Source: an uncultured Gammaproteobacteria bacterium (GTDB lineage: Bacteria > Pseudomonadota > Gammaproteobacteria > JAURND01). From it: a stretch of 64,000 nucleotides of DNA. The stretch's first letter is position 1, and each line of letters opens with the position of its first letter. The stretch is taken from positions 1 through 64,000 of the forward strand of contig CAVQQD010000002.1 of the NCBI GenBank assembly GCA_963714975.1. Direction: 5' to 3'. Made by a program: the position numbers and the translations under genes. Below the pieces are notes generated by a model that was given only the letters and a program-made list of their open reading frames with translations, was not told the origin of the DNA and made no database searches. Of this stretch, positions 1 to 46,985 are shown one piece after another.

Positions 1-848
1 CTGGCCGAGCAGCTGTTGTGTGGCGACATTCCACAGGCGCACGGTTCTATCGCCACTAGCAGAGGCCAGCCAACAGCCATCGGGGCTGAAGGAGACACTC
101 TCCACGCTATCCGAATGCCCGCTGAGCGGCTGACCTATTGGCTTTTGAGTGGCCACCTCCCATAGGTGCACGGTTTTATCACTGCTACCAGAGGCGAGCC
201 ATCGGCCCTCGGGGCTAAAGGCGACACTGTTCACTCCCTGCGAATGCCCTTTGGTTTCACCCACCAGTCTTGTGTGGCTACATCCCACAGCCGCACGGTT
301 TTGTCAGTGCTGCCGGAGGCGAGCAGCTGGCCATCGTGGTTGAAGGCGACACTCGTCACGCAACTTAAATGCCCAGTGAGCTGACCCGTACCCATTTGTG
401 TGGTGGTATCCCACAGGCGCACGGTGTGACCCCAACTGCCAGAGGCGAGCCAACGGCCATCGGGGCTGAAGGCGACACTCGTCACCAACAACTGATGCCC
501 TTCGAGCGGCTGACCAATCGGTTGACCAGTGTTGCTGTCCCATAACTTAATCGTGTTCCATTGCGATACAGCCAGCCAGGGTTGGCGGGGATGCCAGGCG
601 ATAGCATAGGCTGCATAAGTCAATGGCAACCAAGGATGCTCCCCACAGTGGATTTCCCTTAGATCAGCATCCTTTAGATTGGCGCGATAGAGGATCGTAT
701 GCTGCAGGGTGGCGCCGCGCAGATTGGCTTCTCGTAAATCGGTATGCGCGAGTAACCCGTAACTAAAAATCCGCCCCGGGCAGTTGTGCGCCACGCCAAT
801 CGCACCCGCTAAAGTTGATCTGGTAGGCATTGAGCACTGTGGCGGCAT
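1..848 (-). pseudogene. Pentapeptide and WD40 repeat fragment of the decayed gene
   Basis: TDLREANLRGATLQHTILYRANLKDADL followed by repeated GH...VTSVAFSPDG..LASGS.D.TVRLWD units; further frameshifted WD40 units in 1-230. Confidence 0.85.
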
Positions 849-889
849 TGCTAGAAGCTATGGCGAGGATCGGCTCCTTTTTGCTACGC

Positions 890-1249
890 TCAATCAGGGC
901 AAATAGGGCTTTCTGCAAGGTGGGTTAGTGCTGACTCGATCGACCAGAAAACGCACTTGTTCCGATGCCGGGGTGCTCGATTCAGTAAATTAACTGCCTG
1001 CGTTTGATTGAAGTGGAAAAGTGAATCTACGTCCGTGGAGGTAGGATCAGCTACTAGCTGCTCCGCCACCGCGGTAGTCATAAAATAATCCCCAAGGGAA
1101 GCATGAAGAAAACGCCAGCTGTGATCGTGGCTTTCCTGCAAGGGACAACCCTGGCGCAAGCGGGCGCCATCAAGTAGCTGATCACCCAGTAAGTGTTGTA
1201 CTGAATCTTCTTCCAGGCTGGAAGAAGTGGGATCGTGGCGCAAGCTCAC
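890..1249 (-). pseudogene. Post-NACHT fragment of the decayed gene
   Basis: WRFLHASLGDYF motif typical of the region after NACHT domains; joins the 2972-4523 fragment in frame when the IS is removed. Confidence 0.8.
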
Positions 1250-1254
1250 TTGAT

Positions 1255-2966
1255 CCTAAAAACGGCAGTTGAAGGACTTCCTAACCGATAAAACTCTGAT
1301 CAAATATCTTCCAACAAAGTACCTTTTTTTCAATTTTATGTGGGTGCTGATAAACCAAGTGGTGGCTGCAGCGACTTTCCATTTAAATATTTTCCTACTG
1401 CTTGGCTCAAAATTCGATACCAACATTGATCATGTGTTAACTGCTCCGCATCTTTTTTTAATCCTTTAAAAAATTTCACCACGCGGCTTAATAACATTTG
1501 AACTTTATTAATATTTCCATGCGTGCTGCTGATAACAATGTGTGTTTGTCTTGCATGGACAGTTTGTTTTGCCATAGCATGCAATAATAAGGGACGACTC
1601 GTAATAGCTTCTAAATGTTTGTCAGGTTCTGCCAGGCGAGCAAATATATTCCACCAATTATAAATAAGAGCAACCACGCGCGACATAAAGCGGCAACGCT
1701 TCATGTCTTGGGTTGTAAACCCGCTCCAACCCCATTGATTTTTCAATTCATCAAATATATTTTCACTGTCCGCACGATCGCGATAATGTTGCGCAATAGT
1801 CAGTATTTCATCCGGTAATGAAGTAACTAATACAGCGTATTCATAAACATAGGTTTTATCATCAACCTCACCAAAACATATCTCTAATTGTTTTGTTCCT
1901 GCATGTTGTGAAATAAGCATTAAATTTTTTTGTATTTTTTTTCTCAACACGATGACTCGACGCGATCTTTCCCAACCATCTAATTTCAATAAGGCATCAG
2001 TCCCTTCCCAGCCCTGATCAGCAAAATACCAATCTTGACGAACCATTTTTACTTCTTCTATTAAACGCTTTACATTCTTCGTTGATTTCAATTTAAATAA
2101 ATAGGGTATTTGCTTTTCTTCAGCAATTTTCATCACACCATCTGTACCAAAAGCACAATCACCTCGCAAAAATTGAGGCCACTGTGCACGCGGAATACGA
2201 TCTAATAATTCCCATAAATCAGGCGCCGAATAACTGGATGCCATTTGATTACCAGGCTGTACTTCAACATCCAGTACTAAACGTAAATTGGCGATAAAAT
2301 AGGAATGATAGGTATGAGAAGGGCGGCCAGGTTTTGTTGGATTATAACCCAATACAGCTCCTTCCTGTTTTCCATAAAGTACTTTAACTGTGGTATCAAC
2401 ATCTAATATCCATGGCACACTCAGCAATGGCACATAACATTTATTTAAATGTTTTTGTAGCCATACTATTCCAGCTTCTTCTTCCATTTTTACAAAAGCA
2501 CGCCGGAGTGAATCTTCACTCACTATTTTTTTCATACCCAATAAATCTGGATTTACTCCATCACAACGCAATGTAGTGATATGAGCATAGCGACTATGAC
2601 CTGCTAAAACAGCTAATAACAGCGTACCTAAAATGTCACGATTTGAAGGAGCGTTGGGACTTACTAATTGCAATGGACAATCTTCAACCCAAGGGTCAAA
2701 TAAATTTCCAATCTTTAAAAATTCAATAAAAAATGCCAATTGTCCTAGCGGAGTTACAGCAGCTTGAGGATCCCATTCCACATAGATGCGACCACCAAAA
2801 GTATCTAGGGCTAATGAGACATTTTTGGCTAATAAATTTTCTTCTTTTAAGTCTTCTGGCAGTTCACCCGTTGGGTGAAGAGGAGCCGGAGGTAGTTTCA
2901 TGCGATTTCCCCTGTAATTTTGTTATAAGGGTCGCATTATCTCATAGTTCAACTGCTTTTTTTAGG
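1255..2966 (-). mobile_element. IS1380-family insertion sequence, 1712 bp
   Basis: Terminal inverted repeats cctaaaaacggcagttgaa (1255-1273) and ttcaactgctttttttagg (2948-2966), 17/19 matching; 5-bp target duplication TTGAT at 1250-1254 and 2967-2971. Confidence 0.92.
1336..2901 (-). CDS. IS1380-family DDE transposase
   Basis: 521 aa with LDVDTT, LRGDCAF and YRDRADSENIFDELKNQWGW motifs; fills the IR-bounded element. Confidence 0.88.
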   Translation of the reverse strand: MKLPPAPLHPTGELPEDLKEENLLAKNVSLALDTFGGRIYVEWDPQAAVTPLGQLAFFIEFLKIGNLFDPWVEDCPLQLVSPNAPSNRDILGTLLLAVLAGHSRYAHITTLRCDGVNPDLLGMKKIVSEDSLRRAFVKMEEEAGIVWLQKHLNKCYVPLLSVPWILDVDTTVKVLYGKQEGAVLGYNPTKPGRPSHTYHSYFIANLRLVLDVEVQPGNQMASSYSAPDLWELLDRIPRAQWPQFLRGDCAFGTDGVMKIAEEKQIPYLFKLKSTKNVKRLIEEVKMVRQDWYFADQGWEGTDALLKLDGWERSRRVIVLRKKIQKNLMLISQHAGTKQLEICFGEVDDKTYVYEYAVLVTSLPDEILTIAQHYRDRADSENIFDELKNQWGWSGFTTQDMKRCRFMSRVVALIYNWWNIFARLAEPDKHLEAITSRPLLLHAMAKQTVHARQTHIVISSTHGNINKVQMLLSRVVKFFKGLKKDAEQLTHDQCWYRILSQAVGKYLNGKSLQPPLGLSAPT

Positions 2967-2971
2967 TTGAT

Positions 2972-4523
2972 TGGTTGATACCAGGCATTGGGCAAAACTA
3001 ATACAAAACGCTCGATAGGCGGCTTTGAGCCAATACACTTGCACATCATCGCCGTCTTTCACCATCTGTTCCTTAAGTGCCTGCATCGTTGATTTGCCAA
3101 GAATAGCCGTCGGATTTTGCAGGAAATTGCGCTGCTGCCAGGCTTTTCGAGCTTGGCGGGTAAACCACAAGTCCATAAATCGATCGTATAGTGTGGCACG
3201 AGTAATGGGCGCAGAGTCCAGGGGGAGCGACTTCAACGTTTTACTTTCTTTTTGGTCTCCCTTATCTTTGGTTTCAGACGGGGTTTTCTTCTGATTTGGT
3301 ACTTGGGTCAAGGTGGGTAAAATGGATAAGCTCATCCACAGCATAAATGGGGTATCGATTAAGGTGGACAGTTCTGGAATGGTGGCGAAGCTTCGTTGGT
3401 AGCGCTCCTTATCCCAGTCTTTGGGGCGATCAGGATCGTGCTGGTGTTGAGTCACATACTTAGCAATATAATCTTGGGTTTGTTCGGACGTGAATGGCGA
3501 GAGATGGCGCATCCGGTAATGCGACCAGTTCGGTGCTCCCCCATTGGTGTGTGGGACTAAACTGTCGGCCTCGTTGAGCGCCTGTACCCGCTGACTGCGA
3601 CAGCCAATGATCAGCTTCACCCGCCCCTCGGTCTCATACAAATGATTGGCATCATATAAATTGAGGGTGGCGTGTCCTGGGATTTCATCGTAACCATCGG
3701 CAATCCACAGGGTTCGATACTCGCCTTGTAACTCCCGAATTTCATCGCGGGTGAAGCCGCCAATCTCGGGAAGACTACGATAATAATCCCACAGCTGGTG
3801 GGGATTGACTTGAGCAGAAGACAACGGAATAAACAGCGGCATTAACGCTTTAGGCGCCGGGTCCCCCGGACGATAAGCCTGCCAGGCGGGGTCTTGCCAC
3901 AGCGCTCTAAGCAAATGGCGATTAAACGTGCTTTTGCCCGCGCCGCCCACCCCTTGCAGCACCAACATTTGCGCAGGGCCTTGTAAGAATTCTTTTGCTA
4001 CCCAGGGATATAAGGGATCGCAGGGTTGTCCCACCCCGGCCTGGGATTGACCGTTGGGGGCAATATAGATTGACAGTTCTTGGCTGAGGTGGGGGTCGGT
4101 TACTACAGCGTGGCGTAGCTGCTGAATTTTAACGCCTACGGTATAGCGCGCCGACTGTTTATTCAGCCAGGAGGGGATGTGGCTTTTGACTGGCAAGAGT
4201 TTAAATTCAGTGTCTGAGGTGTCCGAATGGAGAGAGGGGATTGGTTCGTCTTGTTTACTTTCTTTGGGTTGGAAAGATATGGAAGGGGGCAAAGTCGGTT
4301 GCTCGGCTGAGATTGCTTGTTGCCATAACCCTTCCAAGACTTGCGCCACGGCACGGATATCAGGACGTTGCTTGGGTGTTCTGGTCAACAAGCATAAATC
4401 ACTTCCTCTAAAGGGGGCGGACAATCCGAGGGTAAAACATCGCGCTGGCCTTTTTGGATATCCGGTGCACGTGTTTTGAGAAAAGCATAATCTGCTTGAC
4501 GACGTAGAGCAACTTCCCAGCAC
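2972..4523 (-). pseudogene. NACHT NTPase fragment
   Basis: Walker A GVGGAGKST, Walker B LWIADGYDEI, IIGCR and TPFML motifs; truncated by the IS. Confidence 0.85.
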
Positions 4524-5164
4524 ACGACGCCAAAGCTATACACATCAGCAGCGGTAGAAGGGGCACGCCCCCTGCATCACTTCAGGGGCAATGTGAGAGG
4601 GAGTGCCATTAAAACCCCACTTGCTGTGCGGCCAAGCTCAGGATCGAGGTCCCAAAATCACCGAGTTTAGCCCGCCCTAGTCATCCACTAAAATATTGGC
4701 GCTCTTTAAATCCCGATGCAGTAACTCATGCTGATGTAATACAGCCAATCCCAATGCGGCATCCCGTAATAACCGATAGCGCCAGGCCCAAGGCAGTTTA
4801 GCGATGAGAGTCCGTCAGCAGCTTTATTAAACTATGAGGTAATAACTCCATCACCAGTAACGGCGGTGCTAATGATAGCCCCCACACGCGCACTAGAAAG
4901 TCGGAATGTAATCGGCCATGATCGCCGCTTCTTTTTTTAACTGCAGTTTATCACGCGGCGGATAGTTTGGCTTCTTTAAAATGCTTCACCGCTACAGAAT
5001 GATCGCCATAGGTGCTGCGCACACTTGGCCGGAAGTGCCTTCGCCCACGATATTTTTTTGGTTTCGGCGGTGTTTTTTTCCTGACAAAATCGATCAGTGT
5101 CTTCAGGGGTAATCGCTAAATCTGAAGTGGGCATCACAACTACATGAGGAGGAGTGGTCTTCAA
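4480..5164 (-). pseudogene. Frameshifted Ser/Thr protein kinase domain
   Basis: Manual minus-strand translation gives LLHRDLKSANILVDD* at about 4680-4730, then AKLGDFG in a shifted frame, and ADVYSFG near 4530-4550. Confidence 0.8.
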
Positions 5165-5448
5165 GGCCTCACAGCCAGTCGCTCCCGATAACAGCCTTCC
5201 CAGGCGCTGATGTCAAATTGGAGCAGTGATGTAACGGCATAACGCATGGTAATAAATGCCCCTGTGCATCGTGTGGCATTAAATAAGTGCTCTCTTCCAG
5301 CTTATAGGCGGCGCTGGAGTGCTATGTAATAGCAACCGAGTGCGTCCGGCTGCTCGGTACAATTCATTCAGCTTCATACAGATTGCAAGGACTTGTCAGT
5401 GTATCAGCGCCCTGGACCAGCCAAAATAACGCATAGTGACTCTGTAAT

Positions 5449-6661
5449 TCATGCCACTCGGCTTCGGTAAAATCGCGTTACTGTGGGTGGCTGATGGCGA
5501 TGGATAAATAGGGGCGAAGTTCCTTTTTGGAGGGCTACTTGCAGGGGTAGCCAAGTGCTAGGGGGTGGATCCCCCGGACGGAATGCTTGCCATTCGGGGG
5601 CTTGCCATAAACCTCGTGCGGTTTCTGTCAATGGCGCACTCGGATCTTCTTCATCCTTACCGAGCCACAACAACACTTCAATTCGAGAATGGAACAGGGT
5701 TTGTTGAATGGCCTTTTGCAATCCAAGTACCGCTTTGGATTCGGATTGTGCTTGAAAATGATCGCGCAATTGACACAGTTTCACCCCCACTCCATAGCGC
5801 GGATCAGACGGATTGAGCCACCCCACGCTTTGATCGTCAGTCAATAACAAGACACCCCCTAAAGAACTCGTTCTCAGCGTGGTATTCACCAGAGAAGCGG
5901 TAATTGTCAGGGATTCACTCATTTCTGGCTTGGGCGAGGGCGTGGATACAGACACTTCATATTTTTTCTCTTTTTCTTCGGAGAAGGGCACCCCCTCCGG
6001 CCCCTTCACCCGGCCCGTTGCCAGCAGGCATCTAGCCCTTTGGCCAGAGTTTTTAACGAAGGACGAGCCGAGGCCACCGGATCCGTGGCGGTTTTCAGGA
6101 ACACGACTAAGTCCGGTGGACAGGTGGGCGGCAGCCCGCTCCTTTCTGCCACTCTTTGGCCACAGTGGAGGAGCCACTCGCGATGTGCCAAATCAACTGC
6201 CCGAGCTTCTCCACCTCTTCGGCTTCCGTCATGGGCGTCTCTTGTACCAAGGGCAGCAGTTGGGCTCGACCTTGAGCATCGAGGTATAAGTCCTGGCAAT
6301 CCCAACCGAGGTGGGTTGCGCCCAGGGCACGGCGTTGGTATAAACCCACCGCCACATCCCGCAACAGGCGACAGCGATTGACCCAAGACTCACTGGCGGA
6401 GGATTTCAGAAACTGATCAAAGCGCATTTCAGGTAAAGCCGCTAGGACTAAGGAAGTGGTATCGGTCCCCTGACAAATCCCTTTAACCGGTAACCAAAAG
6501 GGCAGGGCGCTTTGGGCAAAAGCTTGCAGGGACTTTTGCTGTAGTGGGGAAGCAGGCAACAGCTGCACCGTCACCGCTTCTCCTTGATAAGTCCCCCGGA
6601 ACAAGGTAGTGGATTTTCCTTCGAGGGGCTTACCCTGTTGCAGCGCTTCGGCAGAAAGCAT
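5449..6661 (-). pseudogene. Degenerate kinase-like domain followed by a degenerate copy of the NACHT N-terminal region
   Basis: FRGTYQGEAVTV and RCRLLRDVAVGL kinase scaffold without HRD or DFG; RYGVGVKL and LWQAPEWQAFRPGDPPP parallel RYTVGVKI and LWQDPAWQAYRPGDPAP of the NACHT fragment. Confidence 0.65.
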
Positions 6662-6912
6662 GGGCCAGGAAGCGGAAGTTTTGCTTCCCTGATTCGAACT
6701 CGGGTGGGGGATCTGATGTGAGTAGTGATTCCTGCATGGGCGACTCCTACGAAATAAAATGATTATTTTTTATAGCAGTGTATTTTCATTATTTCATGGC
6801 CAGTAGTAGACCACGAATTTAATTTCTGAAACACCCTTTCGGTGCATAGATTGAAAAATATTTCTTCGCACAAGATTAAAAATAGTTGGGAATATCAAAA
6901 TTCAAAAACAAT

Positions 6913-6952
6913 TACGAAAACTGTTGACGAAATACGAAAATAGCTTAAGCTA
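6913..6952 (+). promoter_or_regulatory. Putative sigma70 promoter with operator-like boxes upstream of the structured leader and recombinase
   Basis: TTGACG (6924-6929), 16 nt, TAAGCT (6946-6951); TACGAAAA direct repeats at 6913 and 6933; perfect palindrome TAGCTTAAGCTA at 6941-6952. Confidence 0.5.
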
Positions 6953-6959
6953 AGGCCCA

Positions 6960-7485
6960 GGGTCATTTTCTGTTTGGACTGTAACTAACAGAGCAAAAGC
7001 CAGTGCGTAGAGATGAAACTCTGGCCATTACCGCAAGGTAATTCTCTACAATGCCGTACTGTGGTACTGCGTTTGTCTTGAAGTATTTCAATGAACTTAA
7101 AGTCGACTAAGTTCCTATTCTCCAGTGGTTTTTATTTCTATTTTCTTGGAAATATTCTTCATGGATTCCGTGCAGGTTTTTTACGAGCTGTCTTCGTAAG
7201 GCACTGCTATTTTAAATTCCCATCGGTTGAACGTTTTCATCCAGCCGGCGAGAAAAATAGTAATCATACCCAGGCAAGTGTCACTTGCTTTTCTACGACA
7301 TCTCGTTAGATGTCTTTTCATCCACTCAAACGTAATAGGAGGTCAATTTGCTCACAGAACTGTAGTGCTTGTAGTACCCGGTCGGTCATGCTGTTAAGTT
7401 CGTAGCGTCCCTCCGACTGAAAGTCTCGTAGCCATTCGTAGGATGGCAATCGGTTTGTTATTTCAGCAAGTCGATTGAGACTAAA
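6960..7485 (+). ncRNA. Putative large structured non-coding RNA or 5' leader of the tyrosine recombinase
   Basis: More than 12 near-contiguous hairpins found by hand, including a GCAA tetraloop stem (7027-7042), multibranch closures and many G-U pairs on the + strand; no convincing ORF. Confidence 0.65.
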
Positions 7486-7525
7486 CACTAAACTGACTTG
7501 AAACAATGAACATTTTGCTGAGATT

Positions 7526-8392
7526 ATGAGTGTCAAATCGCAATTAAAACGCTCGTTATACCAATGCTTAAAACGCGACCGCTGCGGTTCTTTTGCTACA
7601 CGCTGGGATCGTCGCGGAATTTTACAGCAGGCTTTAGAGCAAGTGGTAGACTTAGGGTACAAAATTGCAACAGTCGAACAAATCAAGCCTAAGCATATTC
7701 AGGCCTTGGTGAGATTTTGGCAACAGAAAAAATTAGCCGTGGGGACGATCAAAAATCGTTTAGCGGCTTTACGTTATTTAGCCGACGTTTTGCAAAAGCC
7801 CGAGCTGGTCGCCTGCAATAAAACCTTGCAAGTGGGTTCACGCATCCCCTCAACGCGCACAAACAAAGCCTGTGTGCATCCTGATCTTTCTAAAATTACC
7901 GATCCTTATGTTAAAGCCTCGGTAGAATTACAGCGCGTCTTTGGCTTGCGGCGCGAAGAATCACTCAAAATCAAACCGCATCTGGCCGATCAGGGAAATA
8001 AATTATCGTTGCTAGGTTCCTGGTGTAAGGGTAATCGCAGTCGCGAAATTCCGATTCGTACCGAAGAACAACGTCGATGTTTGGATCAAGCCAAAGGCTT
8101 GCTACCCACGCCCAATCAATCGTTAATTCCCGAAGTTAAAAGTTATATTCAACATCGCTATGTCTACGATAAGCAATTACAACGCGCGGGCATAAAATCT
8201 CATGGATTACGTCATGCGTATGCGCAACAACGGTATTTTGAACTCACCGGTTGGCTCGCCCCGATTGCCGGTGGTCCAAAATTTCGCGACATGAACTATA
8301 CGGAACAAAATCAGGATATTCGTGCTAGGATGATACTGACCGAGGAGCTGGGACATTCGCGCCTGTCAATTTTACAAAATTACTTATTATGA
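7526..8392 (+). CDS. Tyrosine recombinase resembling the Integrase_1 type with an N-terminal SAM-like domain
   Basis: Full catalytic set: FGLRREE (R), KGNRSR (K), HGLRHAYAQQRY (HxxR), ELGHSR (H), QNYLL (Y). Confidence 0.9.
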   Translation: MSVKSQLKRSLYQCLKRDRCGSFATRWDRRGILQQALEQVVDLGYKIATVEQIKPKHIQALVRFWQQKKLAVGTIKNRLAALRYLADVLQKPELVACNKTLQVGSRIPSTRTNKACVHPDLSKITDPYVKASVELQRVFGLRREESLKIKPHLADQGNKLSLLGSWCKGNRSREIPIRTEEQRRCLDQAKGLLPTPNQSLIPEVKSYIQHRYVYDKQLQRAGIKSHGLRHAYAQQRYFELTGWLAPIAGGPKFRDMNYTEQNQDIRARMILTEELGHSRLSILQNYLL

Positions 8393-8689
8393 AAAGTTGT
8401 CATGTAAAGTTACTGGAAAATAATCTTACAAACTCCCTAAAATTTCTATACTTTTCTTGACATGATGATACAGAAGTGACACGGAATTTTTTATACCACA
8501 ATGTGTTTTTGTTGCTCAAATACACTGCGATGCAATTTTTTGATCACCTAATTTTTTTCTAGATTGAGGTTTACTTAAACTATCTCGATTGATATGCTAC
8601 TTTCCTTGCGTTTCATTCTTAATCCCCAGATTAGCTATTCGCTGCGGCTCCAATCCAATGAACACGATAACAAAAAAGGAGAGCACCCT

Positions 8690-10486
8690 ATGTCATCACA
8701 AACTAAACTGGAAACCAAACCCAAATCACCGACCCAGCTGATTCGACCGGATGGTGCTACAACAGTATTCCTTAACATTCCCTACAGCGAGTTATCTTTT
8801 GATGACAAAGACAAGCCTTTAGGCAAAGGTGTTCATGGCAAAGTATATAAAGGAACGTGGGATTATAATCCTGTAGCTATTAAGGAATATGACACACAAG
8901 ATTTTTCTGAGAAAACCCAAAGGGAAATTCGTACAGAAGCAACTGTAATGGTGCAAGCCAGCACCCAATCCGATTATTTAGTGCGGTTAAAAGGCATGAG
9001 TTTAGAGAAACCACATTATTGTTTAGTGATGGAGTACATGCCTGGTGGTGATTTATACCATTACCTACACAGCGATCAGGATATTTCCTGGAACATCCGG
9101 TATCGCATTGGTTTGGATATCAGCATTGGCTTGCATCATTTACACAGTAGAGGAATTTTGCATCGTGATTTAAAAAGTTTTAATGTCCTACTCGATAGCA
9201 ATGGTCGTGCTAAGTTAGCGGATTTTGGCTCAGCGACCATTAAAACTTGTTCTTCAGGAAGTACAAGCTTTAAAGGCACCATATTGTGGGCTGCTCCTGA
9301 AACTTTCACAGATGAACCCACCCAAAAATCAGATGTCTACAGTGCTGGCATGATATTGTGGGAACTGGCTAGTCGTGAAATTCCTTACAAGAAAGCGGGA
9401 AGTATGGCGGGGATGTGGATTATGCAAGGAAAAAGGGAAACTTTTCCACCAGATACTCCTACAGAATTTCAGGCCATAGCTGAAGATTGCTGGCAAGCCC
9501 CTGAAAAACGTCCTGAGGCTAAGGTATTAGCCAAACAACTCGATCAATTATGGCAAGCTGCTCAAAAGAGTGAAATAAAAGAAAAAGCGGCGCCACCTAG
9601 TACTAGCCCCAGCTCTTCTGTTGGAAAAAAACTAAATGATGGTAGCCAATTTGCCCCTACTCAACCCATCGACATTAAGACACCTAAAAAAACAGAAGAA
9701 AAAGAAAAGAGCAGCTTGATGACGCAATCTCACTTGGTTACTCAGCAACCCACGGTTACTGCATCACAATCATCCAGTACCATTACACCTTCCATATATG
9801 CCAGTCAACCCGCCTTCTTTGCTGCAGGCAGTAATTCTTCTAGTACCACATCGAGTGAAGCCAAAACTAATGTGGCTCCCCTAGATGGGAAAAGACACCA
9901 ACAATTGATGTCAGTACAAAATGAATTAATTATAGCCTGTGAAAACGGCAGCTTAATCAAAGCTAAAGAGGCTATTTCCAAAGGTGCTTTAGTAGACTTA
10001 CCTGATGAGCAAGGAAAAAATCCTCTGTATTGCGCTATATATGGCATGAATCCTGAGGTAGTGAACTACGTCATTGCACAGCGTGGCGAAAATACCCCTG
10101 CCAGCAGCTGGAGTACCTGTGAAGAACACAATAAAAAGCATTACGGACAAATCTTTTTAAACGTGAAGTTCGCGCCTGTCTACCACAAAGATTGGTATGA
10201 TTTACTCGTGAAAATTGAGTCCAATGAATTTTTGGTGGGGTATCACCTCGCTCAGGTTCAGAAAGGTACTAAGAATGCGGCATTCTGTCTAGCATTTCCA
10301 TTGCTAAAAGCGACTGTCTTTTGTTGGCGTGGGCTGGATGTGTTAAGTGCTTGGGATATTCCGTTTTCTCTGTGTAGAGGTGTAGCGTGGTACACAGAAG
10401 AGGGATATGAGCGTTATAGAAATCAAATTAAGCAGGTGATAGAGGAGTCACAGCTGGTGCAAGTTAATGAGTCAATGAACCTCTGA
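8690..10486 (+). CDS. Eukaryote-like (TKL-type) protein kinase with S/T-rich linker and ankyrin repeat; probable secreted effector
   Basis: GKGVHGKV, VAIK, HRDLKSFN, DFG, APE and DVYS motifs; ankyrin GKNPLYCA; AGGAG RBS before ATG 8690 (the ORF track starts at 8594). Confidence 0.88.
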   Translation: MSSQTKLETKPKSPTQLIRPDGATTVFLNIPYSELSFDDKDKPLGKGVHGKVYKGTWDYNPVAIKEYDTQDFSEKTQREIRTEATVMVQASTQSDYLVRLKGMSLEKPHYCLVMEYMPGGDLYHYLHSDQDISWNIRYRIGLDISIGLHHLHSRGILHRDLKSFNVLLDSNGRAKLADFGSATIKTCSSGSTSFKGTILWAAPETFTDEPTQKSDVYSAGMILWELASREIPYKKAGSMAGMWIMQGKRETFPPDTPTEFQAIAEDCWQAPEKRPEAKVLAKQLDQLWQAAQKSEIKEKAAPPSTSPSSSVGKKLNDGSQFAPTQPIDIKTPKKTEEKEKSSLMTQSHLVTQQPTVTASQSSSTITPSIYASQPAFFAAGSNSSSTTSSEAKTNVAPLDGKRHQQLMSVQNELIIACENGSLIKAKEAISKGALVDLPDEQGKNPLYCAIYGMNPEVVNYVIAQRGENTPASSWSTCEEHNKKHYGQIFLNVKFAPVYHKDWYDLLVKIESNEFLVGYHLAQVQKGTKNAAFCLAFPLLKATVFCWRGLDVLSAWDIPFSLCRGVAWYTEEGYERYRNQIKQVIEESQLVQVNESMNL

Positions 10487-10596
10487 ATTGGAGGGGTGCG
10501 GATTAAACAACGATGTAAATAGTGAATTAATTGTCGTGGGTAATCCGTGAGTAGCCTATAAAATCACGTAATCCTGCCCTGCGCCAAAGCTTAAAT

Positions 10597-10926
10597 TTGA
10601 CTACATTGGATACTCAAAATTATCCTAGACACTACGGACAAATTTTTTTAATTATGAAATTTGCGCCAGATTATCCCAATGATTGGCAGGATTTACTAAA
10701 GAAGATTGAACCCAATGAGTTTTTAGCGGGGTATCATCTCGAACAGGTACATTTTTATTACGAAAATCGTGAGTGGAACTTCGATTTTGCCGCGTTGAAG
10801 AACTGCGATTTGAATAAGGAGTTGTCCGCATATTGCCGAAGTCGAGAGGGACTCGTCTTTTGCTCTTTGAACTCGAAAATATGCTTTTTACTCTTCCCAA
10901 AACCGCATCCCTTCCGGCCAGGATAA
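10597..10926 (+). pseudogene. Orphan partial copy of the kinase C-terminal module
   Basis: HYGQIFLIMKFAPDYPNDWQDLLKKIEPNEFLAGYHLEQV matches HYGQIFLNVKFAPVYHKDWYDLLVKIESNEFLVGYHLAQV of the upstream gene; no good start. Confidence 0.75.
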
Positions 10927-11325
10927 GCCCAGTTCGCTAACCCCATGATGGATACAGCCGCGCAGTGCCTGCTCCCAATCGTCACTGTAAGCAGGGTAAC
11001 CCACGTCGCGCATCAAATCACTACTGCAGGCGGCCAAACTGACCACGGCAGAAGCCAGAGCCTTAATTTGCTTGGGGTGTTGGTAAAACGGTTGATAGCG
11101 CCACCAGCGGTTGAGTAGAGTTTTAACTGGCCGTAGTAATTCTTGTTGGACTAATACTACGGTGCTACTCAAGCCCACCAGCGTATTTAAATCCCGAATA
11201 AAATCCTGTGCTGAAGCGGTTTCGACTTGTTCCGGGTGATTCATATAAAATCCCAAGGCTGCTGCGAAGAAATGGGTGAGGGCACGTAATTCACGCGAGG
11301 TCCAAGGCTTGTCGAGTCGTCTCAT
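10888..11325 (-). CDS. Hypothetical protein, last gene of the CDPS-kinase-receiver operon
   Basis: GGAGG RBS and ATG at 11325, 2 bp after the receiver stop codon; no recognised domain. Confidence 0.6.
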   Translation of the reverse strand: MRRLDKPWTSRELRALTHFFAAALGFYMNHPEQVETASAQDFIRDLNTLVGLSSTVVLVQQELLRPVKTLLNRWWRYQPFYQHPKQIKALASAVVSLAACSSDLMRDVGYPAYSDDWEQALRGCIHHGVSELGLSWPEGMRFWEE

Positions 11326-11327
11326 TT

Positions 11328-11723
11328 TTAACCCTCCAGGAAATAATGGGGGGCTGCGGCTGATAATACTAAATCGTCGATCATCTGCCGGCATAATTCT
11401 TTCGTCAGGGGCTTCAGTAAAAACCCCTTGACTCCTAACTCATAGGCTTGCACTTTTTGCTGCACATCTTCGTGGGTGGTGACGATGACTATCGGTGTCT
11501 TACTATTGGGCCCTTTGCTTTGCCGCAAGTGGCGCGCGATCGTAAGGCCATTTAAGTCTGGCAGATCCAAGGTTACCACCACTAACCGGTAAGCTTGATG
11601 CAGCTTTTCTAAAGCGGCTAGTCCCCCATTGACCACGTTGACGCAGCAATGCAAGCTTTCAAAAAATCGGCGGGTGGTGTAGGCAATCATCGGATCAGGT
11701 TCAATGAGTAATACATTTTTCAT
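11328..11723 (-). CDS. Single-domain response regulator with an atypical receiver
   Basis: REC fold motifs VLLIE, PIVIVT and LLKP; overlaps the kinase stop; Thr at the expected phospho-Asp position. Confidence 0.85.
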   Translation of the reverse strand: MKNVLLIEPDPMIAYTTRRFFESLHCCVNVVNGGLAALEKLHQAYRLVVVTLDLPDLNGLTIARHLRQSKGPNSKTPIVIVTTHEDVQQKVQAYELGVKGFLLKPLTKELCRQMIDDLVLSAAAPHYFLEG

Positions 11724-13117
11724 GGGTAAGTTTCCTGTGGTTGGAAGGGAATGAACAGAGTGAAGGTGCTGCCTTGATTAAGTGTGCTTGCTACCTGAAT
11801 TTCACCGCCTAATTCGGTTAAAAATTGTTTGACTAGGCTCAATCCCAGCCCCTTGCCTTCATACTGCGCTTGATAGGAAGGAGTGAGGCGATGAAAGGGT
11901 TCAAAGATTTTTTCGCGTTGCTCTGCAGGAATCCCGATGCCGCTGTCGCTTACGGTGAAGCGAATTAACCACTGGTGTTCACGTTCAGACTCAACCGCGG
12001 TTTGTAGGCGCACAAACCCTTTGGGCGTGAATTTGATCGCATTGGCGAGAACATGTAGCAAAATTTGCTGGGTGCGCAGCCGATCACCACGAACGCTGGT
12101 CGGCAAAGACTGGGTCACTTCCCAAGTAAAATGTAATTGCTTGGCTTGGGCGGCCGGCGCTAGCATCGCATAGGTGGTTTGCACCAGGGCCGGTAAATCA
12201 AAAGCCACTTGGCTCACCGGGGTGCCGGCTGTGGAGCGTACATAGTCTAAAATTTCATTGAGGTGAGTGAGTAAGGCCTCAGCTGAATCCATGATGCATT
12301 GCAGTCCCATTTTCCGTTCTGGATTTTCTTCATTTAACGCCAGGGTTTCGGTCATGGTCACCAGACCACAAAACGGCGTCCGTAAATCGTGGCTGATGTT
12401 GTGCAGAAAATCGTCTTTGGCTTGCAGGGCTTGCAACAACGCCTTTTCGGCTTCGATACGGGCGGTAATATCAATTGAAACGCCCGCCATTCCCACAATT
12501 TGACCGCGACGACGCAGTGGCACTTTGTGAGAAAGAAAAATCGCTGTGCGGCCATTCGGCAACACCGCCGGTTCTTCGACAATCTGCGCTTCGCCAGTGC
12601 GCATAATGGTTTGATTGAGCGCATCTAAAGTTTCAGGTAATTGCCCGGCATTGATATTCCAGGGCAAATCGCTATTACGTTTACCCACAATGTCTTCACG
12701 CGAAGCCAGGCCTGCGGATTCGGCTTGCTGATTATTACAGCCTAAATATCGCCCTTCACGATCGATCCAATATAAATGTTCTGGCATGATGGCTAATAAA
12801 TTATCGAGTAATTCGTATTGCTCCTGCAGCGAAGCAGGAGGCGGACGCTGTCGATATAAAATAATGCCTACAACCACCGCGCCACAGGTGAGCATACTGA
12901 GGGTATACCCCCACACCAATAGCTCATCCCTCTCCAAAAAACCGTGCCAAACAATGGTCGCTTGAATTAGCCAAAAGCCGACAAAGGTCAGCAAGGAAAC
13001 TTCCTGGGCAGTTTTTTCTTTGAGGATTTTGATAAATTGCGGAATAAACAGCAGGGCGTTGATAAAAAGCGCGCTGCTCAATAACAGATTAGAAAGGGTA
13101 GGGAAGTTGAGTAGCAT
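11720..13117 (-). CDS. Sensor histidine kinase: PQ-loop (SemiSWEET-like) 3-TM domain - PAS - HisKA - HATPase
   Basis: FIPQFIKILKEKTAQEVSL PQ-loop, YWIDREGRYLGCN PAS, SHDLRTP, NAIKFT, DSGIGI, GLGLS. Confidence 0.9.
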   Translation of the reverse strand: MLLNFPTLSNLLLSSALFINALLFIPQFIKILKEKTAQEVSLLTFVGFWLIQATIVWHGFLERDELLVWGYTLSMLTCGAVVVGIILYRQRPPPASLQEQYELLDNLLAIMPEHLYWIDREGRYLGCNNQQAESAGLASREDIVGKRNSDLPWNINAGQLPETLDALNQTIMRTGEAQIVEEPAVLPNGRTAIFLSHKVPLRRRGQIVGMAGVSIDITARIEAEKALLQALQAKDDFLHNISHDLRTPFCGLVTMTETLALNEENPERKMGLQCIMDSAEALLTHLNEILDYVRSTAGTPVSQVAFDLPALVQTTYAMLAPAAQAKQLHFTWEVTQSLPTSVRGDRLRTQQILLHVLANAIKFTPKGFVRLQTAVESEREHQWLIRFTVSDSGIGIPAEQREKIFEPFHRLTPSYQAQYEGKGLGLSLVKQFLTELGGEIQVASTLNQGSTFTLFIPFQPQETYP

Positions 13118-13130
13118 CGAAGTGACTCCT

Positions 13131-13883
13131 CTAAGTTAGCTTGGATTCAATGGGAGGTAAGGACATAAAGCGCTGTGGCTTGAATTGTTTGCGCTGCTTA
13201 AACTTAATCGCGATCGGGTGTAATAAATCGGGATAGCGTGGAAGTAAGAATTGTTGATGAGTATAGGTCATCGCCGCATTGCGTGGGCTGGGGTAGACCT
13301 CATAATGGCACTGCAATTCCGGCCATAAACACAGCGCGGTGCATTCTTCCAGGACATAATCTCGACATAATTCCTGGGCACGGACGTAGTTAAATTGCCT
13401 CAGCATTTCAGGAGATAAACGTGGGGTGTAGCGCTGTAAAAAAGCGCGGACGGTGCTATGTATAGCCTGTTGGTAAGCCGGGTATTGGCTCACTAAATAG
13501 TTGACGCGTCGAAAAGTGGCTGGATAACGCGGATGAGTTAACCAATAATCCCACCGGACTATTTTAAGCTGCGGTAACTGTTCATAAACAATTTGATTGC
13601 GCGCTAACCACGCTTCGCCTTCTTGCTGTGCACTGGTTAAAAAATCCTCCGCTTTGAGTTCAGGGTTTGGTAATGCCAGAGTATGGCGCTGTAAAGTATC
13701 ATCAATTAGCAAAGTGCAGCGTGCAAACTGTTGGCGTACTAAAGCTACGGTCGTCGCAAATGGCTCGCCTTCGTGCACTTCTTGACCGACGCTAATCGTC
13801 AGTAAACAATGTGCCTGATCAAACGGAATGGGCGCGTGAGTTGCGTCGTATTTGAAAACGGGTTTGATTTTATTCGGATTCAT
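13131..13883 (-). CDS. tRNA-dependent cyclodipeptide synthase-like protein (XYP type)
   Basis: About 250 aa with ISVGQEVHEG, DDTLQRH, YVLEE and EVYP motifs, matching the catalytic Ser, YxxxE and YP layout of XYP CDPSs. Confidence 0.75.
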   Translation of the reverse strand: MNPNKIKPVFKYDATHAPIPFDQAHCLLTISVGQEVHEGEPFATTVALVRQQFARCTLLIDDTLQRHTLALPNPELKAEDFLTSAQQEGEAWLARNQIVYEQLPQLKIVRWDYWLTHPRYPATFRRVNYLVSQYPAYQQAIHSTVRAFLQRYTPRLSPEMLRQFNYVRAQELCRDYVLEECTALCLWPELQCHYEVYPSPRNAAMTYTHQQFLLPRYPDLLHPIAIKFKQRKQFKPQRFMSLPPIESKLT

Positions 13884-13991
13884 CGGCGCGTTCCTGGGTT
13901 GATGCAAAAAAAAGCATCGAACCAGGGTAGGCAAGCAGAAGATTTTAGGATGGCGAGGCGATATAAATCACCCCGCCATACCGTTCCTCTC

Positions 13992-14216
13992 TTACTTGCC
14001 TACCCCTCTTTGCATCGATGTTGGCCACCAAAAAACCCGTACACTTGCACCCCAGGCCCATAACCCGCCGAAGACAGTCGAGGAAATTCCATGGGGTGAA
14101 AGTGGCTTCAGCCAGGCGCGAATAACCCCCCTGAATGAACTCGGGTGAAAAAATGTAGCCCACATCAAAAAAAGAGTTTTGCAGGAACCTGCAATGCAGT
14201 AAGCTAGACTTACCAT
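13992..14216 (-). CDS. Possible leader ORF upstream of the CDPS gene
   Basis: Strong AGGAGG RBS before ATG 14216; its stop lies inside an inverted repeat; no recognised homology. Confidence 0.35.
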   Translation of the reverse strand: MVSLAYCIAGSCKTLFLMWATFFHPSSFRGVIRAWLKPLSPHGISSTVFGGLWAWGASVRVFWWPTSMQRGVGK

Positions 14217-14541
14217 TTCGGCTAACCTCCTAACAAGGTTGGTTTGTTATGGGAGTGCCTCAAGAATGCGGTAAACATTCTTTTTGGCGCGGCCTCGGAG
14301 GCGCAAGCCCCCGAGGCTTTTCTATTATTCATTGACTTTGACTGAAATGCAAATTTTTCTTAAGGGCGGCTTATCTTAGGCTTTAACTTCAGTCAACTGA
14401 TCTATTCTGAGTGGCCTATCACATCTCTGCTTTCGATTTCCGCTTCTTTTATAAATCTTTTGCTACACTTGTTAATTTTTCCTTAAGCTAGTAGACTGTG
14501 CCCGTGGTTGGGTAGTATCGCAAGTGCGACAGACCAACCCA

Positions 14542-14709
14542 TTGTTATTCTGAGCGAACCGAAGGGCCTCCTAGTAAGCGTCGTCCTGGCGTGGATGTCA
14601 GGATTCACCCACAGGGATGTGAAAATTTCGCTTCCTACCTTGGATTATTGCTTCCTGCAGGGATTAGGAGGCCAGGGGGGGAGGTCTTTCGCTTCGCTTA
14701 GAATGACAA
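14542..14709. repeat. REP-like palindromic element with a long structured spacer
   Basis: Imperfect ~30-bp arms ttgttattctgagcgaaccgaagggcctcc / ggaggtctttcgcttcgcttagaatgacaa, related to the elements at 56337 and 62040. Confidence 0.7.
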
Positions 14710-14771
14710 ATTTGTTAGGAATTTATTGAGGAGGGAATTTAAAAACCCAAACGTGAAGTTATTGCAGTCCT

Positions 14772-17700
14772 ATGGCCCCTAATATTTTCACTTGTTTTAT
14801 CATTGGAGAGGATAATCTCCATTTGGAATGTGCCAAAATTATCCAACAACAAGGACAGCAAATAATAGGCATTATCTCTGCGTATGAAGCCGCAGAACTC
14901 TGGGCTTTGCAACAGGGAATTCCCCACTACGCCTCGCTAGCAGCCGCGCAAGAAGCACTTAACAAGACTCCCTTTGATTATTTATTTAGTATTGTTAATT
15001 CACAGATTTTGCCTGCGGCGATACTCAATCTGCCTCGGCAATTGGCGATTAATTTTCATGATGCGCCTTTACCGCGTTACGCGGGAGTTCACGCCACTTC
15101 TTGGGCGATCTTAAATCAAGAAAAGACCCATGGCATCACTTGGCATGTGGCCATTGAAACCGTCGATGCCGGTGATATTTTGCAGCAAGTGATGGTGCCG
15201 ATTACTGAAGATGAAACCGCGTTGAGTTTAAACCTCAAATGCTATGAAGGCGCACTGCAAAGCTTCCCTGAGTTAGTGAAATCCTTAGTGAATCATAGTT
15301 ATCAGCGCCAACCCCAAGATTTAAGTCAACGTACCTATTTTGGTTTTCATCAAAAACCTGCTGGTGATGGCTGGATTGATTGGAATGCCAGTGCTGAAGC
15401 TATTGAGCGATTATTTCGGGCTACTCAATTTGGCTCTTATCCTAATCGTTTTACTTGTCCGAAATTTAGACTGTCATCCCAGCAGCGCGAACCGTCATCC
15501 CAGCAGGGAAGCTGGGAAGAATTTATTGTCACTAAATTAGCATTATTACCCGAGCCATCGATTGCAGCTCCTGGAACAATCGTTGCTGCTACTGCGGATT
15601 ATTGGCGCATTGCAACTGCTAGTTATGACATCGCCATTCGGCAGATTTGTACCTTAGAAGGTGATGTAGTTACTCTGGAAGTCGGAGCAGAAATTCCCCC
15701 TTTGTCCTTCGAGACGCTTCGCTCCTCAGGACGAATGGGGGGCAGGGGGGATTTAAACAGCGGAGGAGGCGATGAAGCCCACTGGGTTTCCCAATGGCAA
15801 ACTATCGAGCCCGCCAAAATACCTTTCCTGAATTTTAATCACCGCGAAAATAAGTCCTCATTCCTTCTCCCCTTGTGGGAGAAGGTGGCCGAAGGCCGGA
15901 TAAGGGGAGAACCCTCAGAACCCATCCCTCGTCCGCCAGCCTACCCTGAGCCTGTCGAAGGGGCACTTTCTCCCACAAGGGGAGAAGGAATAATGCCGGA
16001 GATGTATGAGAGGGGGTACTATCACCTACAACAATGGACTCCCCCCGAACCTTTGCAAAAATTATTACAACACCATTTCCCCGCCCACGATTTCAACACC
16101 CTGCTATTAGCCCTCTGGCTGGTCTATCTCTATCGCCTCGGCAACCAACCCAAAGTAGGGGTGCTGCTGCAATTAGCTTATCATAATGCTTCACATCCGA
16201 GTGATCTGGATCCTGGCATCTATGCCAGGACGAGTTTAGAACTACCGTATTTCACTGCCTTACAAGACGGGTTACACTTCGGCCAAGTTGTGACCCAATT
16301 ACAAGCTGAGCTACTTGCTATGCAACAAAAAGGCGGTTATTTACGCGATATATTTTATCGTTACCCGAATTTAATCGAGGTCAAACACGCCGTGTTTACT
16401 GCTGTCGTGATTGGAGAAATCGATCAGCTACAAAAATCTCGTGCTGCTTTAGTGTTGATGATATCCGCCAAAGATGGCAGTGTATCTTGGCACGTCGATC
16501 AAAAATGCTTAGCGCAAGAACCCTATTTAAAAACCATCCTGCAACAAATGCCTGGTCATTTAGAAACCTTGCTAACCGCCATTACCATGCAACCTGAAAC
16601 TCCTATCGCTGATTTAGCGCTACTCACGCCACAAGAACAGCAGCAAATCTTAATCGATTGGAATCAAACTGAGACCGACTATCCACGCGACAAAACTATT
16701 CCACAATTATTCGAAGAACAAGTCAAAAAACACCCCAACAAAATCGCTGTGTGCTTTGAGAATCAATCCCTCAGCTATCGCGAACTCAATCAAAAGGCCA
16801 ATCAACTTGCGCATTACTTACGTCAGCAAGGGGTGGTAGCTGAAACTTTAGTCGCAATTTGCATGGAACGCAGTATCGAAATGATTGTTGGGATTTTGGG
16901 GATTTTAAAGTCGGGCGGTGCTTATGTACCGATTGATCCTGAGTATCCAAGAGCGAGAATAAAGTTTATTTTCGAGGATTGTCGAGCTATGTTTGTGATT
17001 ACTCAATTTCGTCTTGCTAAGAAAATACATACTATTACAGATGGCGCTGTTATCACGGTTGATAAAATTAAAAATATCAAAATTCATAACAAAGAATCTA
17101 TTAGCTTAAATTTTGACTCTTCTCAATTGGCTTATGTCATTTATACCTCAGGTACTACGGGGAAACCCAAAGGGGTTCTTATTAAACACCAGGGAGTAGT
17201 GAATACGGTCTTGGCAAAGCTACGAAAATTTGCCATTAATCACTCTGATAGAATCTTAAATTTTTCCACCCTTAGTTTTGATGCTTCTGTGTGGGAGATA
17301 TTTCCTTGTCTATTTGCAGGAGCAACCTTATATTTGGCCAGGAAAGAAAATTTGTTACCAGGCAGTAAACTTACGAATTTTTTAGAACAAAATAAAATTA
17401 CTATTGCTACTTTAGTGCCTTCTATACTAGCGATAACTCCACCACCTTCTACCTCCCATTTGCGGATAATTATTTCAGCGGGTGAATCATGCTCGAAGGC
17501 GGTAGTAAAGCAATGGGAAAACGTCCCTGTTTTTGTTAATGCTTATGGACCCACTGAATTTACAATTTGTGCTGCTATGGCAATCGTAGGTAAAGATGCA
17601 AAGAAAATAACTATTGGTAGACCGATCCCGAATACTAAAATTTTTATTTTAGATGATAACATGCAACCTTTACCAATGGGTATAACTGGAGAGTTGTACG

Positions 17701-46909: not shown

Positions 46910-46985
46910 TGGTGGGCCGTCCGCGACTCGAACGCGGGACCAACGGATTAAAAGTCCGCTGCTCTACCAACTGAGCTAACGGCCC
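46910..46985 (-). tRNA. tRNA-Lys (UUU)
   Basis: GGGCCGTTAGCTCAGTTGGTAGAGCAGCGGACTTTTAATCCGTTGGTCCCGCGTTCGAGTCGCGGACGGCCCACCA; 76-nt cloverleaf ending in CCA. Confidence 0.97.

Follow-up and report, generated by a model that had tools for sequence, protein, structure and literature searches.

A conserved RAGATH-13-like element linked to a family of plasmid-type tyrosine recombinases

Is the gene of a tyrosine recombinase in an uncultured gammaproteobacterium preceded by a structured RNA and, if so, how far does that RNA extend and what might it do for the enzyme? The question is raised by the 64,000-nt stretch analysed here (hereafter the window), which is the first 64 kb of contig C2 in a genome of 2.56 Mb assembled in three contigs, and by the recombinase gene found near its beginning. 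An earlier note on this DNA had described almost all of the ~520 nt between a promoter-like site and the start codon as one densely structured RNA, and had suggested that the enzyme might be an RNA-assisted or RNA-guided recombinase or that the RNA might be a complex cis-regulatory leader. There is a real finding here, though of lesser extent and novelty than first proposed: a conserved element of ~100 nt, directly before the gene, tied to a family of plasmid-type tyrosine recombinases.

The enzyme itself is as the earlier note had described it. Its open reading frame (ORF) is intact, both of its Pfam domains score above their cut-offs (PF12834, 56.1 bits with a cut-off of 22; PF12835, 34.5 bits with a cut-off of 23), and the proposed R-K-H-R-H-Y residues are invariant in six homologues (R142/R143, K168, H226, R229, H277 and Y286), their catalytic roles being assigned by eye from the position of the motifs and not from a superposition of structures. 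A sequence search of the PDB returned no relative of the recombinase. Its AlphaFold model (mean pLDDT 79.0) has the two-domain recombinase fold, and the top fold matches in the PDB are all tyrosine recombinases, an integron integrase with DNA coming first (2a3v, E=1.3e-4) and Brujita, lambda, Tn1549 and Cre following, at TM-scores that are low throughout (0.31-0.42; 0.37 for 2a3v). Among three paralogues of the genome the dN/dS ratio is 0.07-0.08 at a dS of 0.27-0.37 and, judged by these values, the recombinase is under purifying selection.

Relatives of the enzyme are widespread. The family is common on proteobacterial plasmids: 248 records of the plasmid collection match the recombinase (tblastn), some of them plasmids of only 4-10 kb, and one member has been reported beside mcr-4.3 (PMC9769806). 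Further homologues were found at six genome loci, from metagenome-assembled genomes (MAGs) of uncultured Gammaproteobacteria and Coxiellaceae, at 58-64% protein identity, and at 64 metagenome loci, at 38-70% identity over the best-matching segment. The viral contigs searched contained no relative. A literature search by both Pfam accessions and by the domain names gave papers that only annotate the domains, and none with a test of the function of the family.

The upstream region and the recombinase gene are present together three times in the genome (C2:6740-8389, C2:1233746-1235397 on the minus strand, and C3:792362-794018). The recombinase has a fourth, 5'-truncated copy (C2:382599-383210, locus L007), which covers residues 83-286 at 94% identity and has neither the upstream region nor the motif described below. 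When the last 300 nt upstream of the gene and its homologues were aligned, a conserved block appeared, which corresponds to the three-way junction that the earlier note had placed at 7422-7482, followed by an invariant AACACUAA. The window reads AAACACUAAA at 7483-7492, and the AACACU within it is invariant across all aligned loci. The sequences of the stems vary among loci with pairing maintained. The same can be seen within the genome, where one of the paralogues (paralogue C) carries two compensatory changes in hairpin P3 (C-G to U-A and G.U to C-G) and two wobble-compatible changes besides; in P2 a U.G pair has become U-A, and in the loop of P3 an A-to-G change retains a pair of the proposed pseudoknot as G.U. 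The features of the locus are collected in Table 1.

Table 1. Features at the recombinase locus, with positions in the window (+, strand of the recombinase gene; A3, A4, A6 and A11, alignments)
Feature	Positions	Strand	Basis or remark
Promoter-like site TTGACG, 16 nt, TAAGCT	6924-6951	+	no difference among the three paralogues
Rest of the claimed ~520-nt RNA, with many local hairpins and without comparative support	6952-7421	+	
Two tandem terminator-like hairpins (7272-7290 and 7297-7314), each followed by UUUUC	7272-7321	+	both fold; scan lists 7297-7314
RAGATH-13-like structured RNA motif (probable): three-way junction, conserved AACACUAA, variable 3' tail	7423-7510	+	covariance-model match
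P1, 5' strand AGUCUC (partner 7477-7482)	7422-7427	+	local fold; all 5 P1 pairs covary (A11)
P2 hairpin GCCAUUC-GUA-GGAUGGC	7431-7447	+	local fold; all 5 modelled pairs covary, 100% of cells paired
P3 hairpin AAUCGGUUUGUU ... AGCAAGUCGAUU	7448-7476	+	local fold; all 7 modelled pairs covary
Proposed pseudoknot, 5' strand UUUCAGCAA, in P3 loop	7461-7469	+	complementary to 7515-7523; inverted repeat I11
P1, 3' strand GAGACU	7477-7482	+	local fold, covariation
Invariant single-stranded AACACUAA	7484-7491	+	invariant in alignments A3, A4 and A6
Proposed pseudoknot, 3' strand UUGCUGAGA	7515-7523	+	overlaps the sole Shine-Dalgarno-like GAGA, a few bases before the AUG
Tyrosine recombinase, 288 aa	7526-8392	+	PF12834 (Phage_int_SAM_2) + PF12835 (Integrase_1)

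A covariance model of the block (R1) was built from three loci, the window not being among them. R1 recognizes the window at 7423-7510 with 22.9 bits (E=0.035 for both strands of 295 kb), its sole match in the 64 kb, and at E<=0.11 it places the element before the recombinase gene in 23 further loci. The resulting alignment of 24 sequences (A11) has 98.0% of its 395 cells paired, all 17 of its 17 pairs show changes on both sides, and compensatory cells number 118, while shuffling gives 28.2 ± 5.2 and none of 500 shuffles reaches 118; these counts are inflated by the fitting of A11 to the structure of the model, and many of its loci are related, so that the cells are not independent events. When the 3' partners were slid as a control, pairing fell to 31-47%. 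A second model (R2), built from A11, scores the window at 44.3 bits, the window having belonged to its training set, and in the window's own genome it gives exactly three matches, each directly upstream of one full-length copy of the recombinase. For 13 GC-rich loci, MAFFT followed by RNAalifold gave no consensus structure, the subgroups being mis-aligned, and what is said below of hairpins in GC-rich loci was judged by eye.

The linkage of the element to the gene was also counted by sequence. In 43 of 54 metagenomic homologue loci AACACTNA stands 37-96 nt before the inferred start codon, a count whose members are not independent, four sequences being exact duplicates and several GC-rich loci near-identical. 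Three more loci carry AACACTNA, or a form of it with one mismatch, 169-256 nt upstream, and eight have no AACACTNA nearby, several of these with short or uncertain upstream sequence. The other 10 of the 64 metagenome loci stand outside the count: four have no upstream DNA (L023, L035, L053, L075) and six are partial protein matches (L076, L077, L081-L084). Most loci contain the conserved 8-mer a single time. Starting from the RNA instead of the protein, a search found matches in 2 of 8 genomes from the order and in 2 of 150 from the class, and four of the five matches have a recombinase homologue directly downstream; the coupling of motif and recombinase holds down to about 40% protein identity. 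One orphan copy of the motif (L091, 1501-1588, minus strand, 62.7 bits) has no recombinase within 1.5 kb downstream.

By the matches of R1 and R2, by alignment A11 and by the AACACTNA counts, the structured, strand-specific element that the earlier note had coupled to this recombinase is confirmed, for the window and for the family as a whole, with the three-way junction as its core. The analysis shows that it is conserved, that its stems covary, that it is biased towards one strand and that it is tightly linked to the gene. Since nearly every member examined carries the element before the gene, it would be integral to the expression or to the working of these enzymes.

Is the element new? Two of the relatives match a motif that has already been described. 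The Rfam model RF02688 (RAGATH-13), whose consensus consists of an outer helix, P1, two hairpins and then ucAACACUAAAC, has a gathering score of 80 and matches at L018 1551-1645 (76.1 bits) and at L096 545-636 (83.8 bits), both sites lying on Legionella plasmids and upstream of two tandem recombinase-type genes. In the reverse direction R2, run with filters off, finds the RAGATH-13 site of L018 at E=0.051, and its best match falls at the expected place in most GC-rich or plasmid loci (in L095, L098, L094 and L097 at E values of 0.01-0.05). RF02688 itself was scanned against 28 loci and, apart from the two Legionella plasmids, misses the motif in all of them (26 loci); in the window's own genome it gives one match of 18.8 bits elsewhere (E=0.72), and Rfam scans of the whole window, together with two local scans, returned only a tRNA and chance-level matches. 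The window element is thus a divergent variant of the RAGATH-13 kind, a family which Rfam holds in part as RF02688 and which accompanies plasmid-type PF12834/PF12835 tyrosine recombinases across Proteobacteria. The statement of the earlier note that no RNA partner of tyrosine recombinases was known is thus not quite right, as the Legionella relatives match RF02688; the window version escapes that model. A match to a described motif had been named beforehand as counting against the proposal and, relatives having such a match, the novelty of the finding is reduced. To our knowledge no function has been assigned to RAGATH-13, and a literature search gave no paper naming it.

Many relatives share a second component. 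In at least 12 loci an ORF of 63-77 aa, always of the same family, ends a few bases before the motif (for example L029:863-1066 and L018:1213-1443), so that no room is left for a promoter between them. On the two Legionella plasmids, too, RAGATH-13 comes after a member of this small-ORF family (E=6e-12 and 4e-14). The family is assigned to nothing in Pfam or PHROG, and could encode a directionality or regulatory factor. The usual order is therefore small ORF, motif and recombinase; in the window the motif instead follows a locus-specific non-coding stretch, and a hidden Markov model of 10 small-ORF proteins found nothing at E<=10 in six-frame translations of the window and two paralogues. A 72-aa ORF at 7091-7309, considered as the small ORF of the window, is broken by indels in the paralogues.

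How much of the non-coding stretch belongs to the element? The earlier note had read a single RNA of ~520 nt, acting as a whole, from the promoter-like site to the start codon. The hairpins on which this was based all fold when their intervals are folded alone (6968-6993; 7007-7049, with AUUACC-GCAA-GGUAAU; 7078-7091; 7093-7114; 7123-7206, with 7133-7154 and 7180-7200 inside it; 7206-7261 with 7224-7247; 7272-7290; 7297-7314; 7379-7419; and the three-way junction 7422-7482), and the GCCAG at 6999 and CTGGC at 7021 are present. The folding energy of 6952-7525 is also somewhat more favourable than that of shuffles on the plus strand (z=-2.38, 2 of 100 as good; z=-1.51 on the minus strand), as does that of 6952-7404 alone (z=-2.56, 1 of 100 as good). 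The conserved part, 7405-7530, reaches only z=-0.58, so that folding energy is not an informative measure here. Long ORF-poor stretches are found upstream of homologues on plasmids and MAGs as well, and 6952-7100 differs by only 0.7-6.7% between paralogues.

Comparison speaks against one long RNA. In the predicted fold of 6952-7421, 2 of 147 pairs are double-changed among the three paralogues, as against 1.3 in shuffles (211 of 500 as high), three sequences being weak evidence that covariation is absent, and 18 of the variable pairs can no longer form in one copy or more. With the six homologue loci the upstream 864 nt gave only short chance-level matches in blastn, the best of them 19 nt inside the motif (E=0.026), and nothing in nhmmer; a DNA search with 6900-7525 in 8 other genomes of the family gave only a 25-nt chance-level match. 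Between paralogues 7101-7421 differs by 11.5-15.6% plus indels, compared with 14-20% at third codon positions of the recombinase gene, and 7422-7525 differs by 0-7.7%. The identity profile of the paralogues is a mosaic with a block of high identity (5500-7050) that covers coding sequence too, so that gene conversion, which this suggests, is inseparable from constraint. Of the proposed promoter the TTGACG is present, whereas the -10 sequence matches at only 3 of 6 positions and the site is missing from a promoter scan; the terminator-like hairpins stand between it and the motif, and in at least 12 relatives the place just upstream of the motif is taken by the protein-coding small ORF. A single ~520-nt RNA is not supported, and we regard it as very improbable. 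Of the upstream sequence, 7422-7482 and its 3' flank show conserved, covarying structure and 6952-7421 does not; the latter would be a locus-specific spacer with incidental or local hairpins rather than part of one large RNA.

Within this spacer an inverted repeat at 7093-7114 (GAACUUA / UAAGUUC) keeps its arms in the three paralogues around spacers of ~8, 8 and 18 nt, and may represent either a hairpin whose loop is free or a site for a protein. A 14-nt stretch at 7109-7122 resembles one arm of the yeast Flp target site, presumably by chance. Upstream of the recombinase homologues of several plasmids there is likewise a stretch with no annotated gene.

The covariation raises a further question, namely whether the element works as RNA or as folded DNA. 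Of the 24 sequences, 16 (the window not among them) have a GNRA tetraloop at the tip of hairpin P2, and UUCG-type loops are found in several GC-rich relatives and in plasmid pSIO1. UUCG stabilizes RNA, while TTCG does not particularly stabilize DNA, an argument that was used to favour RNA for the STAXI motif (Weinberg et al. 2010, PMC2864571). In addition, G.U cells are about three times as common as mismatch cells (23 and 8), so that the sense strand pairs better than its complement, and it is RNAs that typically combine a three-way junction with an outer helix and a pseudoknot. As folded single-stranded DNA, the element would be a recombination, transfer-origin or priming site, recognized by the recombinase during replication or conjugation much as attC sites are by their integrases. 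Hairpins followed by a conserved 8-mer would suit such a site, the family is plasmid-borne and lies near ssb and DUF932 genes on Legionella plasmids, and in two plasmids a gene for a type IV coupling protein is found downstream of the recombinase; the integron integrase solved with DNA is the best fold match, albeit at a low TM-score and with other recombinases scoring similarly. On the other hand, three copies on the chromosome, with no transfer genes nearby, have retained the motif and show compensatory changes in it. Single-stranded DNA and RNA motifs are hard to distinguish, and one published RNA motif proved to consist of attC sites (Weinberg et al. 2017, PMC5737381). Tetraloops and G.U pairs, set beside this caution, lead us to favour RNA and to keep folded DNA as a rival, which we consider unlikely yet worth carrying along. 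The best explanation, in our view, is that the sense strand of the recombinase gene carries a structured RNA element at 7423-7510, which probably extends as far as the start codon (7526).

What would such an RNA do? The arrangement of its 3' part gives an indication. In the window the loop of P3 can form nine pairs with the sequence just before the start codon (z=2.72; 1.5% of shuffles as good). In relatives a P3 loop that usually contains ACGG is complementary to a downstream CCGU, and in these columns 74% of the cells are paired, compared with 20-53% when slid, the alignment of four rows being off by one column; in the window the place of this pseudoknot is taken by another pair of sequences. 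An outer helix (P0), between the 5' flank and a region ~25 nt past the 8-mer, is significant (p<=0.05) in 10 of 21 loci, with a mean z of 1.8. P0, the pseudoknot and an alternative pairing were all assessed by windowed tests against shuffles, a naive finder of outer helices having been dropped as it produced spurious ones.

The simplest reading, to which we give an even chance, is that the element is a cis-acting leader RNA, as suggested by its position, its strand, a geometry that would allow co-transcription with the gene and a window pseudoknot that overlaps the ribosome site. The element would be transcribed as the leader of the recombinase mRNA, although many relatives would instead carry it between two cistrons, the small ORF of ~70 aa and the recombinase. 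It would then act in cis on the expression of the recombinase: in the window the ribosome-binding site would be masked by the pseudoknot, and translation would be controlled by folding or by a bound factor, which might be the recombinase.

Several points, besides the inflation and relatedness already noted for A11, weigh against a leader RNA of this kind. Covariation alone has no power to separate RNA from folded single-stranded DNA, as has been pointed out for attC (PMC5737381). A look through sequencing runs gave none of RNA that contains the locus, and a promoter scan gave no convincing promoter in the sequence directly before the motif. Nor is the ribosome site occluded in general, the end of the motif lying 5 to 60 nt from the start codon in relatives (by eye), and the alternative pairing expected of a switch shows no enrichment (it is seen in 2 of 21 loci, with a mean z of 0.25). 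The two segments of the pseudoknot are conserved in sequence and for that reason show no covariation, and P0 was not detected in the window (z=-0.84), which was among the 21 loci tested. RF02688 gives no match at E<=10 in the window, nor at the three copies of the motif in its genome. Finally, gene conversion rather than constraint could explain the high identity of the paralogues.

A rival to the leader is an RNA that acts in trans, as a partner that forms a ribonucleoprotein with the recombinase and scaffolds, activates or helps to target recombination, by analogy with RNAs beside other mobile-element enzymes. Coupling to one enzyme family down to about 40% identity would fit such a partner, as would an invariant single-stranded 7-8-mer followed by ~10 variable nt of roughly constant length, and the lack of a general occlusion of the ribosome site. 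Tyrosine recombinases, however, recognize DNA by protein contacts, the motif has no large variable loops, and its 8-mer stands once per locus in most loci. The idea of an RNA guide in the earlier note, with variable loops matching the ends or targets of the element, fares no better with the variable stretch: compared with 1-6 kb of flank per locus it gave 11 nine-mer matches, as against 7.0 from shuffles, at no constant position and with none in the window. The motif series does offer a precedent, in that RNAs derived from RAGATH-18 guide IS607 TnpB (PMC11061315). On balance, we think a trans-acting partner improbable, and of the possibilities set out in the earlier note the cis-regulatory leader stays as the simplest, whereas guiding has no support. 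In the strongest version, which we hold to be somewhat less probable again, the RAGATH-13-type RNA would be an obligatory subunit of PF12834/PF12835 recombinases, the enzyme binding the junction while AACACU and the ~10 variable nt select or activate the DNA site. Were the RNA a cofactor, RNA-assisted DNA recombination would extend to tyrosine recombinases; were it an obligatory subunit, this would be the first RNA-dependent tyrosine recombinase family, present on many proteobacterial plasmids.

A further possibility is that the RNA is self-cleaving or processed, and separates the message of the small ORF from that of the recombinase or sets the 5' end and the stability of the mRNA. Rfam labels RF02688 as 'Gene; ribozyme', the RAGATH series was reportedly found, in a 2015 paper, near genes associated with known self-cleaving ribozymes, the element stands between cistrons with no room for a promoter in many loci, and its single-stranded core is invariant. 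Yet the small ORF that would be separated was not found in the window, whose sequence resembles no core of an Rfam ribozyme class; we know of no demonstrated cleavage by RAGATH-13, and the literature search, as said, gave no paper by that name. We judge processing to be very unlikely. The cis-acting leader remains the simplest reading.

As to the surroundings of the gene, the nearest ORF of at least 100 aa upstream is on the minus strand and ends at 6661. Its neighbours within ~7 kb comprise an insertion sequence, a protein that matches NACHT weakly and below the threshold, a Ser/Thr kinase with ankyrin repeats, a two-component system and an ORF of 3030 aa; the absence of phage, excisionase and conjugation genes claimed in the earlier note agrees with what we see within about 7 kb. 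The insertion sequence (1242-2972) has a 521-aa ORF at 1336-2901 (minus strand), and elsewhere in the genome has six copies at 99-100% identity and one at 85%. Two minus-strand ORFs, 5449-6177 and 6107-6661, overlap in different frames and are 94-100% identical among the three copies. The first is kinase-like, with 25% identity to the kinase gene at 8594-10486, and the second resembles part of the ORF at 2949-4523, the one with the weak NACHT match; together they are possibly one frameshifted paralogue. Neither has a match in Pfam, NCBIfam, PHROG or the plasmids, and as partners of the recombinase they were rejected, being fragments of a kinase-family paralogue of the same genome. Further away, a minus-strand gene at 13131-13934 has a weak match to tRNA-dependent cyclodipeptide synthases (21.1 bits, cut-off 45) and adjoins a histidine kinase/response regulator pair. 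A tRNA gene at 46913-46985 (minus strand) is the sole Rfam match above the gathering score in the window.

The three full copies of the recombinase locus sit within a segmental repeat of >15 kb, which is present in 3-4 copies at 72-93% identity (10-15834 in the window; C2:1225570-1240444, C3:788448-804313 and C2:382591-395844). Inverted copies of it stand at both ends of contig C2, and could mark an inversion, recombination between copies or a break in the assembly.

On plasmids the neighbourhoods are of another kind. In the Legionella plasmids (L018 1672-3367 and L096 666-2367) RAGATH-13 is followed by two tandem recombinase-type genes and then by ssb, in L018 with DUF932 as well, a neighbourhood that resembles a plasmid leading region. 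The type IV coupling protein gene comes directly after the recombinase on a Pleionea plasmid (L094 1477-3837) and past a small hypothetical gene on Vibrio pSIO1 (L020 1934-4819). Both of these plasmids are typed as non-mobilizable, with no known relaxase, and the recombinase might act in transfer.

How does this element compare with known systems? Structured RNAs beside genes of mobile-element enzymes are known from the IS110 bridge RNA and the IscB omega RNA, in which a variable guide matches DNA targets. The guide RNAs of IS607 TnpB are similar to the present case in that a structured RNA beside the gene of a mobile-element enzyme was first catalogued as an orphan motif (PMC11061315). They differ from it in their variable guide, which matches DNA targets and has no counterpart found in the RAGATH-13-like motif, and in their enzymes: those of the guide-RNA systems are nucleases or DEDD recombinases, that of the window is a tyrosine recombinase.

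The attC sites of integrons, single imperfect hairpins of single-stranded DNA at the ends of cassettes, are likewise paired with a tyrosine recombinase (IntI) and are conserved in structure more than in sequence. The window element differs in being a three-way junction, in the RNA-type tetraloops of its family, and in occurring as one copy per gene, always upstream and on the sense strand. STAXI (RF01728) and PAGEV (RF03037) are, like it, orphan structured motifs of plasmids and integrase neighbourhoods, but their structure, their sequence and their more distant upstream position are different, and neither matches the window. Both were seen further upstream of recombinase homologues, PAGEV in L020 at 348-565 (122 bits) and STAXI in L099 at 527-662 and 784-926 (72.5 and 34.6 bits). 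With translational leader RNAs the element shares the sense strand, the position immediately upstream of the start codon and, in the window, a pairing that overlaps the ribosome site; it differs from them in the negative outcome of the alternative-pairing test.

The closest likeness is to RAGATH-13 itself. In its consensus and in the window P1 encloses two hairpins in a multistem junction, a single-stranded AACACUAAAC follows directly 3' of P1 (with AACACU in both), and the element lies on the sense strand just upstream of a gene for a PF12834-type recombinase; the Legionella RAGATH-13 loci and many of the variant loci also have a homologous small ORF upstream. The window differs in having no outer helix P0, and the AT-rich variant group in its conserved ACGG loop in P3 with a downstream CCGU partner, a pseudoknot absent from the Rfam consensus. 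An orphan Rfam motif is thereby widened well beyond the reach of the current RF02688 model, and gains a defined genetic context of small ORF, motif and recombinase.

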